The notes beneath the pieces are model-generated. The model was given only the letters and a program-made list of their open reading frames with translations, was not told the origin of the DNA and did not search any database. A DNA stretch of 50,068 bases from an uncultured Candidatus Saccharibacteria bacterium. Lineage in GTDB: Bacteria > Patescibacteriota > Doudnabacteria > UBA920. How positions within the stretch are numbered: position 1 is the stretch's first letter; the number at the start of each line of letters is the position of its first letter. This document shows positions 28,379 through 35,558 of the stretch, in pieces. The stretch covers positions 1-50,068 of the forward strand of contig CAYSUI010000009.1 in assembly GCA_964434195.1 (NCBI GenBank), written 5' to 3'. The position numbers and the translations under genes were made by a program.

Positions 28379-29146
28379 TTATTGACCGCAACCGTTTTGG
28401 GCTAGTTTTGGTTTCCGGTGGTTTTCCATTTCTGGAAAGCGACTAAGGAAGTGGTCGTCTGGGGTAAGTTCTTTAATACCTTCGGCCAAAAATGTACTGT
28501 TACCAGGTGTACCCCTGACGATTATGAAATCCCCTAATTCAAGATCTTCCTTATTTGGGAAAAAGGTGGAATTTGAAATTAGAATATCGCAATGTTTTTT
28601 AAAAATAGTTATGAGGCCGATTTTATCGGGCTCAATGGAATATACTTCACCCATAATACCGTTGTGAAGTGGTTCGCGTCTGATGTCTTTATATATAAAT
28701 CGAAAGGGGCCAGGTCCTCCCCCACTGAAACGTTTAAATGCCCACGAGTGAAGTGGAGTAAGCGCAACCAGACTGCCTCCCAAGATTACGATACCGACAA
28801 TAGAAAGCATGGTATAGATAAGTGGTTTTCTATAGGAGAAAGCGTAGTGTTTTACCAACCAGTAAAGTACTAGAGAAAAAATAAGCACGTAAAGGATGAT
28901 AATAAATGGGAGTGAAAGCAGAAGATCTCTTATACCCAAAATACCTAACTCTGGCAAAACTAATGCCCCTTGAAGTTTTAATTTGAAAATAATAAAGCTG
29001 AAGATGAAGACGGCCGAGAGAGCACAAATACCCAAACCAATAGACCAAAGCAACATGCGCGCGACAAAAAAACTTTTGGGTCGCATTTGCAGCTTACCCG
29101 TTTCTATTTCATCCATTATTTTTTTTGAGATGTCTTCTTGGTTCAT
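28379..29146 (-). CDS. Membrane protein, putative anti-sigma factor partner of the upstream ECF sigma
   Basis: Start overlaps the sigma-gene stop by 4 nt; short cytoplasmic N-terminus then 4 TM helices and a C-terminal domain. Confidence 0.5.
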   Translation of the reverse strand: MNQEDISKKIMDEIETGKLQMRPKSFFVARMLLWSIGLGICALSAVFIFSFIIFKLKLQGALVLPELGILGIRDLLLSLPFIIILYVLIFSLVLYWLVKHYAFSYRKPLIYTMLSIVGIVILGGSLVALTPLHSWAFKRFSGGGPGPFRFIYKDIRREPLHNGIMGEVYSIEPDKIGLITIFKKHCDILISNSTFFPNKEDLELGDFIIVRGTPGNSTFLAEGIKELTPDDHFLSRFPEMENHRKPKLAQNGCGQ

Positions 29147-29703
29147 TGTGAGTGCTTTACTAAAAGCGATTTAAGTTTTTCTTTGCCTCTAAGTATTCTA
29201 ATACCGACGGTATTAATAGGAATGTGTAGCACATCTGCTATTTCTTGATAACTTAAGTTATCTAAAAAGTATAGAGCTAGGGGCTCTCGATATTTATCGT
29301 CTATTTTAGAAAGTGCTACTTCTACGTCTTTGGTAAGCTCTATTCGGTCTACTTCTTTCTCTATATTAGTTTTGTCTGGATAATAAGGCAGAAAAACTTC
29401 TAGGTCGAAATAATCTACAAATGAGTTACTTTTTCTTTTACCGTGGTTAACAAAAGAATTATGGGCTATGCGGTATATCCAGGGACTAAATTTTCTTTCG
29501 GTGTCAAAACTCTGAATGTTTTGATAAGCTTTTATGAAAACTTCCTGGACGATATCTTCCAAGTCTGTATGGTCAAAAAGCAGACTTCTACCGTATCGCA
29601 GAAGCCTATCCTGATAACGCTCTACCAAATGCGAGTATTGCTCTTTTTGCCCTGACTGTACCCGCTTCGCTATTTGTTCGTCTGACTCGGTTGACGGTTC
29701 CAT
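29143..29703 (-). CDS. ECF-type RNA polymerase sigma-70 family factor
   Basis: Region 2 DIVQEVFIKAYQNIQSF..FSPWIYRIAHN and region 4 LSYQEIADVLHIPINTVGIRILRGKEKL. Confidence 0.85.
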   Translation of the reverse strand: MEPSTESDEQIAKRVQSGQKEQYSHLVERYQDRLLRYGRSLLFDHTDLEDIVQEVFIKAYQNIQSFDTERKFSPWIYRIAHNSFVNHGKRKSNSFVDYFDLEVFLPYYPDKTNIEKEVDRIELTKDVEVALSKIDDKYREPLALYFLDNLSYQEIADVLHIPINTVGIRILRGKEKLKSLLVKHSQ

Positions 29704-31130: not shown

Positions 31131-31808
31131 TTATTTTCTTGGATTTAGATCAAAAATACTCAGATGGGATAAGCCAATTACAGGTTGGTTAGGGAATAAA
31201 TACTCTCTCATAATAGCCTTACCCTTTTCGGTATAAGTAAAACCGTCACCCGAATACAGCTCTTTAAGATGAAACGAGAAGTAAAGGAACGCGCGAAAAA
31301 GATTTATGCTCAATACGGATTTCTTAAATCTTTCGTATGTAATAAATCGTTCATCTTGTACACCCGCGTGCTCTACTTCCATAAGACTATAGCCAAGACT
31401 TTTTTCTACTTCCTGTATTTTTAATTCTTTGAGGGCTGGTAGAAAGTGCGAAGTAAAATGCCTGGTAGCAGGATAGAGTTTATGAGAGTAACTAAGTACA
31501 TTTTCCCAAGTAGCAAGTGGCGGTTGTTCGCTTAAACTAAAAACAAAAAGCTTATAGACGAATCCTGCTTTTAATTTACTGTCTAAGTATTCCTCTTTAT
31601 GTCCTATATAGAGCAATTTTTCGTAGTCCGAAAGTTTAGTTAGCGTATCTATACCATCGGAACCCATAACCATAACAACTTCCCTACCTAGGTCAGATGA
31701 GAGCATTTTGAAATCATCTGGATTCTTTCCTTTGACTAACCGAGCGTATAGTTTTTGTTTATCTGATTTTTCTAATACTTCACCCAAGTCTATATTATCT
31801 ATCCTCAT
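31131..31808 (-). CDS. Hypothetical protein, divergent from the radical-SAM gene
   Basis: AAAGGAGG 5 nt upstream of ATG 31808 (the ORF-track TTG 31835 contains this SD). Confidence 0.6.
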   Translation of the reverse strand: MRIDNIDLGEVLEKSDKQKLYARLVKGKNPDDFKMLSSDLGREVVMVMGSDGIDTLTKLSDYEKLLYIGHKEEYLDSKLKAGFVYKLFVFSLSEQPPLATWENVLSYSHKLYPATRHFTSHFLPALKELKIQEVEKSLGYSLMEVEHAGVQDERFITYERFKKSVLSINLFRAFLYFSFHLKELYSGDGFTYTEKGKAIMREYLFPNQPVIGLSHLSIFDLNPRK

Positions 31809-32064
31809 ACGTTCCTCCTTTTTGACAGAATACAATAGCTAATTTGGAAAACAAAATCAAGGTTTGCTGGAAATGAATTTGACTCTAATAATTAGCCTTA
31901 AGCTAATAATGCAATATCTTGGATTTGAATATTTATTTTTTTACATTGTTAAGATATAGCTTTAACTTTTTTAAATATATAGTCTATACTTAACTGTTCA
32001 ATATGATTATTGGACATTTGTGAGTCTGTAGTAACCAAAAATATGTCTTACACAAGGAGGTGTT

Positions 32065-33807
32065 ATGACTAAGAAAATTCGCACTAGATTTCCCTTGCTG
32101 AAAGGAGAAAAAGGGAAAAATATCCCCAAGGAGAGAATGCAAATTAGAAATCAGTTACTCGAGGAGTTGCGTAAAATTTCTAACAAAGCACTCTTGGATC
32201 TTCAATACTTTCAACCAGAAGTCGGTTGCCTGAATCAATGTCGTTTCTGCAGCCAGGAAGCTGGGACAACAAAGTGGATGCTAAGTAAAGAATCTTTAGA
32301 GGATTTAATTGCGGCTATAAGTCTGCGTCTTAAAGAATCTTCTATTGAACTAGCTTATGGAAGAATCAACCATAGACAGGGTGTGATCTTCCCATACTTT
32401 GATAATGATGTAATGTCATACCCTTATTTGTATGATTACATTCGTTTGATAAAAGAAAACTTAAAGTGCAAAGTCCGCATAGCCACAGTTGGATATTCGC
32501 GCCACAATCATGAACTAACTCAAATGCATGAAAAAATTGCGAATGAGTTTCCAGATGTTTTTGCGGGTATTCGATTTTCTTTCACACCCTACACTTCAGG
32601 TTGGGTTAGTCTGAACGGACTTCAAACATCGAGAGATGAATTTGAACAGGATTTTGCGAATGCGCTTAGTACCTATTTTCCTCTTATGGAGAGAATTGGA
32701 CTTGGCAAGTCTACTGCATGTGTTGAACTAAGGTTTCACCCTAATGTACAGAGATGTGGGGTAGTAGACACCTTTCTTTACAATCATCATGTTATTAAGG
32801 CTGGACCTCACTTGCTTATTCGACAGGAATCCGGGAGCACATCTCTTGAGGTAACTGAGATTGAGTCTATTCATGGAAGAGATGGTATATATAATAAACA
32901 GTCTGTTCCATATTTTTGGCTAACTGACGACATGATGGTTGCCGATACACCCTGGGAAGATACTGTTACCAAAATCCTCACGGGGGATAATGCACTGAAG
33001 CATAAATATAAAGTGGTACCTGTCCACCTTTTTTCTAATGCTGACGGACCTTACTATGCGGCATCTGCCGATTTCCTACCGACCGGTGAATACAAGGCGT
33101 TCCACATTTACCCCAAAACAAGTTCTCGTTCAGTAAGCGGATACAACGATGCAGAGAGATTTCTCTTGAATGCTATACTCAGACATAAACGTGAAAGAGG
33201 TATAGCGCGTAGAGAGACATTCCCAGATGCTACTTGGGCAGATGTTGAAAGTATTGTAGACAAGCTACGGTTCTTGCTTGAAGAAAAAGAGCAATACGAT
33301 GTGAGAGCCGCGCTGCACATTTCGCAACATATTCTGCCAATTGTGGAGAGTTACATACGGTGCTTAAAGGCTTCTGGACTACCACCCGATCTATTCTTTG
33401 ACCCGCGTTTTACGATAGATACCGGTCAAATAGTTAACCAGGGTAGGGCTAAGGAAATCTTTAAAGGCCTTGTTACTAAGGATGAAGAACCTTTGACTCC
33501 AAGGGAAGCAACGGCGTACGGCAATACAAGCGTATCTACTTTAAGAGGTAAGGTATGGCGACTTGCGCCGGTTCCGTATTCGGTGAATAGGGTACTTTCT
33601 GCTTCTAAGGCTGGTGGTAAAAATTTTTCGTCTCAAATTTCAGGACAGATGTCTTTGCAACAACTTAGCGAAAAGACACTGCGACCTTATGATGCAAAAA
33701 CGAATGAACCCTTGCCTCATTTTGTAATTAGCGGATTGGATATAATTTCGGTTTCGCAAAAAACAAATGAGTTAAGTTATCTAAAACCTGGTATGAAAAA
33801 GGAGTGA
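32065..33807 (+). CDS. Radical SAM domain protein (580 aa) with a long uncharacterised C-terminal region
   Basis: CLNQCRFC = CX3CX2C near the N-terminus; AAGGAGG SD; TGA stop overlaps the start region of the next gene. Confidence 0.75.
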   Translation: MTKKIRTRFPLLKGEKGKNIPKERMQIRNQLLEELRKISNKALLDLQYFQPEVGCLNQCRFCSQEAGTTKWMLSKESLEDLIAAISLRLKESSIELAYGRINHRQGVIFPYFDNDVMSYPYLYDYIRLIKENLKCKVRIATVGYSRHNHELTQMHEKIANEFPDVFAGIRFSFTPYTSGWVSLNGLQTSRDEFEQDFANALSTYFPLMERIGLGKSTACVELRFHPNVQRCGVVDTFLYNHHVIKAGPHLLIRQESGSTSLEVTEIESIHGRDGIYNKQSVPYFWLTDDMMVADTPWEDTVTKILTGDNALKHKYKVVPVHLFSNADGPYYAASADFLPTGEYKAFHIYPKTSSRSVSGYNDAERFLLNAILRHKRERGIARRETFPDATWADVESIVDKLRFLLEEKEQYDVRAALHISQHILPIVESYIRCLKASGLPPDLFFDPRFTIDTGQIVNQGRAKEIFKGLVTKDEEPLTPREATAYGNTSVSTLRGKVWRLAPVPYSVNRVLSASKAGGKNFSSQISGQMSLQQLSEKTLRPYDAKTNEPLPHFVISGLDIISVSQKTNELSYLKPGMKKE

Positions 33808-33809
33808 AG

Positions 33810-34928
33810 ATGCTTTTACTGAAGGACTTTGAAAAATACATGAAAAGGAAGGGGTATGCCTGGTTACCAGACCAGGGTTTAGTTTCTACGTCCAGTAGAC
33901 AGTTGTTTAATATAGCTGGAGCAGCACCGCTACTAGCTACTGGGTATCCGCGTGATACTGAAAGTAAACTCGCGGCTTCATCACAAAGTTGTCTGCGAAT
34001 GAGTAGCTTTGATACTGTTGGTACGGAAAACAATAAGCATATTTTTTTCTATATGCTTGGACACTTCTCTTTTTTCCAAAGAGATGAGGTCCAAACCAAA
34101 TACCAAAGTTGCTATGAGGCTATAGAATTTCTGTGTCATGTACTTGGACTCTCAGAATCTAGGTTAAGGGTTTCTACACACCCAGATGATGAAGTTACCC
34201 TTAAGACGTGGGGATTACTAGGCTTGCAAGAGAAACAACTAGAGAGTAAGACTAGTAAACATACTGCGGAATTTATAACGGATAAGAGTGGCTACAGAAC
34301 AAAGGTAGGTTACCAACTTTCATCTGGAAGGGTACTTTACTTTTGGGATTTGGTGTTCGTTCAATTCGACTCACCTAATTTTCTTAAACTCATGCCACAA
34401 ATACTAATGGAGTCTGGTATGTCACTTGACCGCTTGTATACTGTACGAGAGGACAAGGAGCACGATTACGAGACTTCGTATTGGCTCCCCTATCTGCACA
34501 ACTTATCCGAAAGGATGCAAATTCCTGTAGACAAAACAGTTTACAGGATAGCGGACATTACCCAAGCCGCAATTACCCTACTTTCCTGCGGACTTAAACC
34601 CGGACCCAAAAAACAGGAATATGTTCTTAGGAAACTCCTGAGAGAGATTTTTACCCTTACCTATATCCTAAATATCTCACCCGAACACCCACTTGCTTGT
34701 GGCCTGCAACGATCTAGCTTTCTTGCTGGTCGCAAACCTGAGTCGCAGGTAATAACAGACAAATTCAATTTGGAACTAGATGCGTGGAAAAAGGTAATTG
34801 AAAAAGGTAAAACTAAACTGCGAGAACTTATGATTAACCGTACTGCCCTGACTAAGGAGAACAGACGGTTACTAAATGAAGCTTTCGGTTTAAACGACTT
34901 AATAATAGAACACACACTGGCCAACTAA
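33810..34928 (+). CDS. Alanyl-tRNA synthetase catalytic/tRNA-recognition domain paralogue lacking editing and C-Ala domains
   Basis: Ordered matches to AlaRS blocks: LFNIAGAAP, SQSCLR, HIFFYMLGHFSF, WDLVFVQFD, ESGMSLDRL, RIADITQA...QEYVLRKLLREI, LLNEAFGLNDLI. GGAG 5 nt upstream of ATG 33810. Confidence 0.75.
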   Translation: MLLLKDFEKYMKRKGYAWLPDQGLVSTSSRQLFNIAGAAPLLATGYPRDTESKLAASSQSCLRMSSFDTVGTENNKHIFFYMLGHFSFFQRDEVQTKYQSCYEAIEFLCHVLGLSESRLRVSTHPDDEVTLKTWGLLGLQEKQLESKTSKHTAEFITDKSGYRTKVGYQLSSGRVLYFWDLVFVQFDSPNFLKLMPQILMESGMSLDRLYTVREDKEHDYETSYWLPYLHNLSERMQIPVDKTVYRIADITQAAITLLSCGLKPGPKKQEYVLRKLLREIFTLTYILNISPEHPLACGLQRSSFLAGRKPESQVITDKFNLELDAWKKVIEKGKTKLRELMINRTALTKENRRLLNEAFGLNDLIIEHTLAN

Positions 34929-34994
34929 TGGCTAGTTTTTTATTGGAATAGGGTCATATCCAAGTTGTTATCTATAAACTTCGCCCACTCTTTG

Positions 34995-35558
34995 TTACTT
35001 ACTGGTATTTCCTTCTTCTGCATCGAATGTAACCTGAAAAATAGTATCCGCAGGGAAACGCCCCTCTAAAACGTGCTTACCGGATTTGGGATTTCCATCG
35101 TCTAGCTCTGAAGTAATAACTATGGTTCTGTAATCTGACTTATCTCCATCTACTATAAAATCTAGTCTGGCTTCTTTGGTGGTAGGGTCGTATACTAATT
35201 TTCCTGTTGAAAAATAATCTTTTGTTAAAGGATTTTTTACCAGCCAACCTTCATAAAAATCTGTACCTGGGAGTGCTGGTAAGTTTTTAGCGATTACGCG
35301 ATGATATGTCTTTCCTTCGAAAACACCTAACCAAGCTGATCCATTAGCTCCGGATTTCGAGACATCTTTTATATTTACAGAGGCGGATTTAGTTATAACT
35401 GCGTCAAAATCTTTTTTTATTATTGGTGTTTCTTCAATTTTTTGGGTAGTCGTTATGGACTCCTCTGGTAACTTTGTATTCTCTCTCATTGAAGCATAGA
35501 CTACCCCGATACATACTAGAATTAACACTATTGCGATAGCCCATATCTTTTTGTTCAT
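34995..35558 (-). CDS. Membrane-anchored extracytoplasmic protein (anti-sigma-K RskA C-terminal-like domain, weak)
   Basis: N-terminal TM anchor; LPALPGTDFYEGWLV pattern. Confidence 0.4.
   Translation of the reverse strand: MNKKIWAIAIVLILVCIGVVYASMRENTKLPEESITTTQKIEETPIIKKDFDAVITKSASVNIKDVSKSGANGSAWLGVFEGKTYHRVIAKNLPALPGTDFYEGWLVKNPLTKDYFSTGKLVYDPTTKEARLDFIVDGDKSDYRTIVITSELDDGNPKSGKHVLEGRFPADTIFQVTFDAEEGNTSK

Follow-up and report, generated by a model that had tools for sequence, protein, structure and literature searches.

What does a protein resembling alanyl-tRNA synthetase (AlaRS) do when its gene lies directly behind that of a radical S-adenosylmethionine (SAM) enzyme, in a genome that has a genuine AlaRS elsewhere? 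The question is raised by the second gene of a two-gene operon on contig CAYSUI010000009.1 (assembly GCA_964434195.1) of an uncultured Candidatus Saccharibacteria bacterium; the window analyzed here is the whole stretch of 50,068 nucleotides of that contig. An initial annotation, made from the letters alone, suggested a protein of altered substrate or acceptor specificity, or a non-catalytic scaffold, rather than a redundant AlaRS. We propose that it is a remodelled AlaRS core acting outside translation, probably as an adenylate-forming, carboxylate-activating ligase paired with the upstream radical-SAM enzyme, and we judge the chances of this reading to be evenly balanced. The proposal follows from the conservation of residues that contact ATP and alanine, purifying selection, the tight operon, the recurrent linkage of the two genes and the presence of an ATP-grasp enzyme as the alternative partner. 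From the conserved ATP and amino-acid contact residues we infer ATP-dependent activation of an acid and its transfer to an acceptor other than tRNA.

The open reading frame (ORF) encodes 374 amino acids from GTG 33804 and 372 from ATG 33810. The latter is the likely start because AAGGAG lies 6 nt upstream. Residue numbers of the AlaRS-like protein count from the GTG (two less from the ATG), and those of E. coli AlaRS follow the literature; counting the initiator methionine adds one (R69 = R70, R85 = R86, etc.). The protein matches PF01411 (tRNA-synt_2c) with an E-value of 5.5e-32 and 111 bits (cut-off 30.3) over profile positions 5-397 of 552, and scores 107.9 bits with the alaS equivalog TIGR00344, below the cut-off of 457.05. 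A Pfam scan of the 374 residues gave no match to the editing domain (tRNA_SAD, PF07973). Both the editing and the C-terminal domains are missing, and the alignment to E. coli AlaRS stops near residue 410. An AlphaFold2 model built on 22 relatives has a predicted local distance difference test (pLDDT) score of 93. Foldseek matched this model to AlaRS structures with E-values down to 5e-27, and query-normalised template modelling (TM) scores against bacterial and human AlaRS catalytic fragments were 0.77-0.86. The model predicts a class-IIc fold.

Compared with its orthologue in a sister species of the same genus, the gene has a ratio of non-synonymous to synonymous substitution rates (dN/dS) of 0.16 and is under purifying selection. 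Contigs from independent wastewater and freshwater metagenomes span the junction of the radical-SAM and AlaRS-like genes without differences. A single 191-nt contig from one wastewater metatranscriptome run, for which DNA carry-over is possible, is identical to positions 34488-34677 within the AlaRS-like gene and gives a weak hint of its transcription.

A profile search run exhaustively over 1.84 billion representative sequences gave three score tiers. Tier 1 contained five proteins of 261-375 amino acids (347-598 bits) and tier 2 seventeen proteins of 306-391 amino acids (186-254 bits); below about 171 bits came ordinary AlaRS, mostly full-length, plus some short forms. A tree of 67 sequences (26 short-form and 41 AlaRS-type, including the genome's own AlaRS) was built with IQ-TREE. 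Tier 1 formed a clade with a Shimodaira-Hasegawa-like approximate likelihood ratio test (SH-aLRT) support of 100, and a branch of length 1.05, also with a support of 100, split tiers 1 and 2 from the 41 AlaRS-type sequences. The fully supported split from housekeeping AlaRS confirms that the short form makes a distinct clade. The AlaRS-like protein belongs to a rare clade of proteins of about 370 amino acids, well apart from housekeeping AlaRS.

The genome (1.41 Mb, 94% complete) carries its genuine AlaRS on another contig. This enzyme scores 537.5 bits with the alaS profile, above the cut-off, and groups in the tree with short Patescibacteria-type AlaRS. It has about 630 residues and matches the profile only to position 692 of 847, the C-terminal part being missing; it reads 'EIGNNVF' for EIWN and 'DFGGGLER' for DTGMGLER. 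An AlaX-like editing-domain protein is also encoded in the genome. Homology to the AlaRS core, and the label 'alanyl-tRNA synthetase' that the Joint Genome Institute (JGI) gives to relatives, would agree with a second or inhibitor-resistant AlaRS kept as a back-up or self-resistance copy. We regard this as highly improbable given the low alaS score, the missing editing and C-terminal domains, the loss of the residues that read G3:U70 (see below), the position outside the AlaRS clade and the occurrence of the paralogue, among 60 relatives, only in the same genus. The genuine AlaRS elsewhere and the separate clade thus support the initial annotation in its rejection of a redundant AlaRS.

The initial annotation relied on an alignment made by hand, and its register was checked using HMMER (A. 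aeolicus AlaRS as reference) and MAFFT (E. coli MG1655 AlaRS). Both programs reproduced it, with VGYTARHHTFFEMLGNFSF opposite VGTENNKHIFFYMLGHFSF in motif 2 (at fuller length, TARHHTFFEMLGNFSF opposite ENNKHIFFYMLGHFSF) and DTGMGLER opposite ESGMSLDR. It had been concluded that the ATP-binding Arg, thought to be invariant in genuine AlaRS, was replaced by Asn. An Arg does lie opposite Asn, but it is E. coli R85 and not the class-II motif-2 Arg. The latter is R69 in 'SQRCVR' and is kept as R65 in 'SQSCLRM'; the ATP-binding Arg is therefore not lost. Nor is R85 invariant, as it is Arg in only 21 of the 38 AlaRS-type sequences sampled.

In AlaRS, the motif-2 Arg (Arg68 of the Methylomonas enzyme, equivalent to E. 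coli R69) binds the ATP alpha-phosphate; in the Methylomonas structure with ATP and alanine, the adenine is stacked between Phe89 and motif-3 Arg232, Val204 touches the alanine methyl group and Asp235 binds the alpha-amino group (PMC12143591). The contact residues are present in the AlaRS-like protein as R65, F82, R210, V184 and E203. Across seven family members the class-II ATP-site residues R65 (R69), F82 (F90) and R210 (R242) are invariant, as are V184 and G205, and D/E203 is conserved.

The residues of the AlaRS pocket, in contrast, are changed. K167, Y179, D182 and E203 stand for E183, E209, N212 and D235, and W170 has no Trp counterpart, its place being taken by T or D in the census alignment and by G163 in an eight-sequence alignment. 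The GPCGPC(S/T)EI loop, described in the initial annotation as without counterpart, is indeed replaced, together with about 30 flanking residues, by a shorter segment, KHTAEF..SGYRTKVG. The Asp-to-Glu substitution in DTGMGLER was also correctly read, but it is not family-wide: D235E occurs only here and in the 90%-identical orthologue, and five other members keep Asp. Several changes had been missed, namely E183 to K, E209 to Y/K/R/S, N212 to D, the loss of W170 and the lack of conservation of N303 and D400. A column census of the family itself (tier 1), the related short family (tier 2) and AlaRS-type sequences is given in Table 1. Lys for E183, Asp for N212 and the loss of W170 are common to all seven family members, against W, E, E and N at positions 170, 183, 209 and 212 in 37-38 of 38 AlaRS-type sequences. 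Judged from these alignments, the diagnostic family-wide changes are the loss of W170 and of the GPCGPC loop, two replacements of Glu by basic or neutral residues, and N212D.

Table 1. Residues found at E. coli AlaRS positions (numbering with the initiator methionine in brackets) in three sets of sequences
Position	Tier 1, own family (n=7)	Tier 2, related short family (n=21)	AlaRS-type (n=38)
R69 (R70)	R	R	R
R85 (R86)	N/K/S/A	R16, K4	R21, Y9, S3, T2, G1, W1
F90 (F91)	F	F20, L1	F38
W170 (W171)	T/D	mixed	W38
E183 (E184)	K7	E21	E37
E209 (E210)	Y/K/R/S	E21	E38
N212 (N213)	D7	N21	N38
D235 (D236)	D5, E2	D20	D38
G237 (G238) and R242 (R243)	kept	kept	kept
N303	P/S/A	N16	N32
D400	E3, N2, D1, S1	mixed	D30

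Class-II synthetases handle Mg-ATP with acidic residues on the strands that precede motif 3, and the presumed roles of W170, E183, E209 and N212 are pocket lining and the handling of metal or phosphate. A literature search on the roles of these four residues in AlaRS returned nothing citable. In HisRS an Arg replaces a catalytic metal. By analogy, and as speculation, the invariant K167 and residue 179, which is basic in four of the seven members, could act like this Arg.

A pseudo-synthetase no longer capable of adenylation, acting as a scaffold or as a substrate-binding or regulatory part of the radical-SAM enzyme, like HisZ for HisG, would account for the loss of the GPCGPC loop and of four residues that are near-invariant in the 38 AlaRS-type sequences (W170, E183, E209 and N212), and for the tight coupling to the radical-SAM gene. 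However, the substituted residues K167 and D182 are themselves invariant, suggesting a site that has been re-tuned rather than one that has decayed, and the slot is usually filled by an ATP-grasp ligase, which belongs to an active type of enzyme. We find such a subunit rather improbable. The scaffold put forward in the initial annotation is likewise not favoured, as the loss of the ATP-binding Arg was a mis-assignment, R65, F82, R210, V184, G205 and D/E203 are conserved, and dN/dS is low.

The helical tRNA-recognition region had been described as retained, and this is correct for the fold, as the TM-scores indicate, but not for the residues that read the acceptor stem. In E. coli AlaRS, N303 and D400 read G3:U70, and the D400A and D400N enzymes are nearly inactive (PMC6055181). 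In the AlaRS-like protein the KPGPKKQEYVLRKLLRE helix has P268 where AlaRS has N303, and LLNEAFGL has N358/E359 for Y399/D400 with G362 kept; the family has P/S/A and E/N/D/S at the two reader positions. Because these readers are lost, the helical domain probably represents a kept fold and not a reader of tRNA-Ala. The altered acceptor specificity suggested earlier is supported by the same replacements.

The helical domain is nevertheless kept whole up to a 'YGFP' turn, and all family members share the YVLRKLLRE helix, R280 (E. coli R314) and G362 (E. coli G403). Superposition of the model on AlaRS catalytic fragments extends to this domain. Tier-2 gene clusters also encode a near-canonical AlaRS N-domain of 430 amino acids, a hint of tRNA-dependent chemistry in the wider clade. 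All this would suit an RNA-directed adaptor or transferase that docks an acceptor stem via the helical domain, and either charges a tRNA other than tRNA-Ala or presents RNA or aminoacyl-tRNA to the radical-SAM enzyme. We consider this unlikely. N303, Y399 and D400 are replaced and not conserved, and the window contains no tRNA gene. By alignment, the protein also stops at about E. coli residue 410 and does not reach the length of the 441- and 461-residue fragments of E. coli AlaRS, which are those needed for tRNA charging.

The first gene of the operon encodes a 580-residue radical-SAM-like protein. Its cysteines C55, C59 and C62 do not vary among 27 homologues, and dN/dS against the sister-species orthologue is 0.054. 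The stop codon (TGA, 33805-33807) lies 2 nt before ATG 33810 and overlaps the alternative GTG. The AlphaFold2 model has a pLDDT of 91.7; Foldseek gave no match at E <=0.001, and the weak ones were to generic cores (EpeE, GDGT-MAS, OxsB) over the N-terminal part only, so that no subfamily can be named. Pfam and NCBIfam gave no match to an aminomutase family. A complex prediction for the two proteins returned a score of 0.00, which, as it was run without controls, counts neither for nor against binding. Homologues of the radical-SAM protein form more than 130 clusters, mostly annotated 'hypothetical protein', from Streptomyces, Kitasatospora, Nonomuraea and Nocardia (Actinomycetota), some of them fused to NUDIX or NADAR domains. 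In Patescibacteria the family is rare (3 of 401 genomes).

We also examined how often the two genes occur together. The sister species has the two genes as an orthologous pair, and linkage is seen directly in two genomes and indirectly in three more. In the indirect cases, AlaRS-like members lie on contigs of the same size as those of the closest radical-SAM homologues (P0003/P0012, 5346; P0005/P0014, 14434; P0007/P0016, 16470). The 120 ATP-grasp homologue clusters listed include none of these three sizes. In a tree of 67 radical-SAM proteins the type of partner maps to clades, with supports of 100 for AlaRS-linked, 93 for ATP-grasp-linked, 100 for NUDIX-fused and 99 for NADAR-fused proteins.

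The ATP-grasp partner is the usual one. In genome G303 and in a Bailinhaonella-derived contig the gene order is ATP-grasp-like (512-522 amino acids), radical-SAM, NUDIX. This operon is widespread among Actinomycetota, including Streptomyces, Nonomuraea and Kitasatospora, and occurs in some Patescibacteria; variants fuse the radical-SAM protein to NUDIX or NADAR (PF08719). A search with the ATP-grasp protein returned the same actinomycete genomes. In Streptomyces, Nonomuraea and Kitasatospora the two families are tied together by seven pairs of consecutive locus tags (e.g. ACWGOK_27790/27795 and OG204_18685/18690) and by about 29 contig sizes that agree. In genome G062, a 420-residue protein is encoded directly upstream of a radical-SAM-NUDIX fusion. 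It has no Pfam or NCBIfam match, but is a remote relative of the AlaRS core: hhalign against the profile of tiers 1 and 2 gave a probability of 98.4% and an E-value of 1e-14, and PF01411 is present in 22% of the members of its top protein-language-model cluster. Since this remote relative occurs in addition to the AlaRS-linked clade, an AlaRS-derived partner appears to have been recruited in at least two radical-SAM clades. In the same genome a Fic-domain gene follows the fusion on the opposite strand. A search of viral contigs found no relative of the AlaRS-like protein and a single radical-SAM relative, that on the Bailinhaonella-derived contig. In a plasmid search the radical-SAM family was represented only by a C-terminal fragment, beside a NUDIX gene, in two Streptomyces plasmids.

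Our preferred reading of the AlaRS-like protein, a carboxylate-activating ligase, would work as follows. The protein would have taken over the ligase slot by non-homologous displacement of the ATP-grasp enzyme. Using ATP, it would activate a small alanine-like acid as the adenylate, and the acid would then be passed to the substrate or product of the radical-SAM enzyme instead of to tRNA-Ala via G3:U70. The E183K and N212D changes and the replacement of E209 by K/R/Y/S may re-tune the handling of phosphate and metal, or the pocket. More broadly, and only tentatively, we can picture a widespread pathway centred on a radical-SAM enzyme of about 550-610 residues with interchangeable ligases. The ligase would usually be ATP-grasp (with NUDIX or NADAR) and in at least two lineages an AlaRS core whose two invariant Glu, the presumed metal ligands, have become Lys/Arg-type; a small amino acid would be attached to a nucleotide-like or other non-tRNA acceptor.

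Several points weigh against the ligase proposal. Both families are known from sequences and models alone, and the linkage of three family members is deduced from equal contig size and not from inspected DNA. Loss of the invariant Glu residues (38 of 38 and 37 of 38 AlaRS-type sequences) and of W170 (38 of 38) could abolish adenylation and not re-tune it. The AlaRS-like gene follows the radical-SAM gene and so has the position of NUDIX in the three-gene operon, not the upstream position of ATP-grasp; the slot argument is therefore functional and not positional. There is also no NUDIX gene on this contig.

The features discussed here are listed in Table 2. No match to a defence system was found in PADLOC for the radical-SAM protein, the AlaRS-like protein or their neighbours, and PHROGs gave only weak matches without function. 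No link was found between the operon and the flanking sigma factor and RskA genes. Nothing corresponding to the divergent 234-residue ORF is encoded around the radical-SAM genes in G303, G062 or locus L071.

Table 2. Coordinates of the features described in the text (window positions unless another contig or locus is named)
Feature	Position	Strand	Basis or remark
AlaRS catalytic-core paralogue	33804/33810..34928	+	PF01411 match, AlphaFold2 model, separate clade, dN/dS
Shine-Dalgarno AAGGAG	33798..33803	+	6 nt 5' of ATG 33810, within 3' end of radical-SAM gene; read from sequence
Motif-2 segment SSQSCLRM..VGTENNKHIFFYMLGHFSF	33978..34079	+	alignments
R65 (kept)	33996-33998		
N77 (for E. coli R85)	34032-34034		
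F82 (kept)	34047-34049		
Remodelled active-site strands	34254..34361	+	KHTAEF..SGYRTKVG replaces NFWQMGDTGPCGPCTEI, K167 for E183; YFWDLVF replaces EIWNIVF, Y179 for E209, D182 for N212, V184 kept
Motif-3 segment QILMESGMSLDRLY	34398..34439	+	E203 for D235; G205, R210 kept; alignments
Helical domain, counterpart of AlaRS tRNA-recognition domain	34590..34907	+	alignments
Radical-SAM-like protein, 580 amino acids, first operon gene	32065..33807	+	CX3CX2C (C55/C59/C62), weak PF04055 match
Promoter-like site 5' of two-gene operon	31962..31990	+	consensus scan, 9/12; consensus match alone, region not enriched over shuffles
Terminator-like hairpin and T-run, operon end	34916..34946	+	8 terminator-like sites in region, 2.9 expected from shuffles
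Divergent 234-residue ORF	31131-31835	-	no match at E <0.01 in Pfam, NCBIfam, PADLOC, PHROGs
ECF-type (extracytoplasmic function) sigma factor	29143-29703	-	flanks operon region
Membrane protein with anti-sigma-K RskA C-terminal domain	34995-35558	-	flanks operon region
Housekeeping AlaRS	C16:19935-21797		
AlaX-like editing-domain protein	C48:732-1403		
Three-gene operon (ATP-grasp-like, radical-SAM of ~560 amino acids, NUDIX)	L071:6405-10256; L035:5214-9115		all three annotated hypothetical
420-residue protein of G062	L036:4948-6210		

Stand-alone synthetase cores outside translation, such as EpmA, HisZ, AsnA and the amino acid:carrier-protein ligases, have each revealed new biochemistry. As far as we have found, no AlaRS aminoacylation core with a role outside translation has been described; literature searches returned nothing on the pairing of AlaRS-like and radical-SAM proteins or on NADAR/radical-SAM/ATP-grasp/NUDIX systems, and Pfam, NCBIfam and PADLOC have no model for this AlaRS-like subfamily or its radical-SAM partner. 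The members of this rare clade have an AlaRS active site that is redesigned in a coherent and conserved way. The genetic partner ties the clade to the more than 130 'hypothetical' radical-SAM clusters common in Streptomyces, Nonomuraea and Kitasatospora, and the apparent swap of ATP-grasp and AlaRS-like partners provides a testable handle on the function of the whole radical-SAM system. If the ligase modules are interchangeable, the AlaRS-derived one would be a new functional class of synthetase paralogue. For annotation, the label 'alanyl-tRNA synthetase' is wrong for proteins of about 370 amino acids of this kind.

Of the known proteins, bacterial AlaRS catalytic fragments (E. coli 441N, 3hxu; A. 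aeolicus, 1riq; Methylomonas, 9jc7) have the same predicted fold, with E-values to 5e-27 and query-normalised TM-scores of 0.81-0.85, and share V214, G237, the Arg residues of motifs 2 and 3, the stacking Phe and an acidic side chain at position 235. They differ in that identity is 19-22%, about 30 residues around W170 and GPCGPC are deleted or replaced here, the editing and C-Ala domains are missing, and the AlaRS-like protein lies in a separate clade. AlaX/AlaXp is also a stand-alone piece of AlaRS, but it corresponds to the editing domain (profile positions 455-687) and not to the aminoacylation domain (5-397).

The short AlaRS-like proteins of tier 2 (about 370 amino acids; LLFNISGGV, SGRHH, G.R(T/S)EI, ELWN, DSG.SLDR) are a sister group of the same length that shares the loss of W170 and GPCGPC, but keeps R85, E183, E209, N212 and mostly N303. 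Their genes occur in a cluster of their own, found at more than 20 metagenome loci (L039-L066, e.g. L043:4571-10500), which seems undescribed. It encodes an aldo-keto reductase, a radical-SAM protein of about 407 residues (Rv2578c-like, weak), the AlaRS-like protein of about 372 residues, a family-less 251-residue protein, a peptidase S51 and the near-canonical AlaRS N-domain of 419-430 residues (PF01411, 327-333 bits, no editing domain), in place of which L061 has a full-length AlaRS. A specific kinship between the radical-SAM neighbours of tiers 1 and 2 was considered and rejected (hhalign probability 18%).

The ATP-grasp-like partner resembles the AlaRS-like protein in lying beside the same radical-SAM family, and it belongs to an ATP-dependent, carboxylate-activating ligase type, as is proposed for the AlaRS-like protein. 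Its fold is unrelated, it would form an acyl-phosphate and not an acyl-adenylate, and the NUDIX gene beside it is missing from the AlaRS-like operon. EpmA (PoxA/GenX) is a paralogue of the LysRS core that ligates beta-lysine onto EF-P, and EpmB (YjeK) is the radical-SAM aminomutase that makes beta-lysine. The AlaRS-like protein derives from AlaRS and not from LysRS, its radical-SAM partner has no aminomutase match, and a scan of ORFs at 24-42 kb showed no EF-P gene next to the operon. As with EpmA, however, a truncated class-II core reduced to the catalytic part is found beside a radical-SAM enzyme, the housekeeping synthetase is kept elsewhere in the genome, the paralogue forms a distinct clade, and linkage to the partner is conserved. 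We believe that EpmA/EpmB is the best functional analogy for the pair described here.

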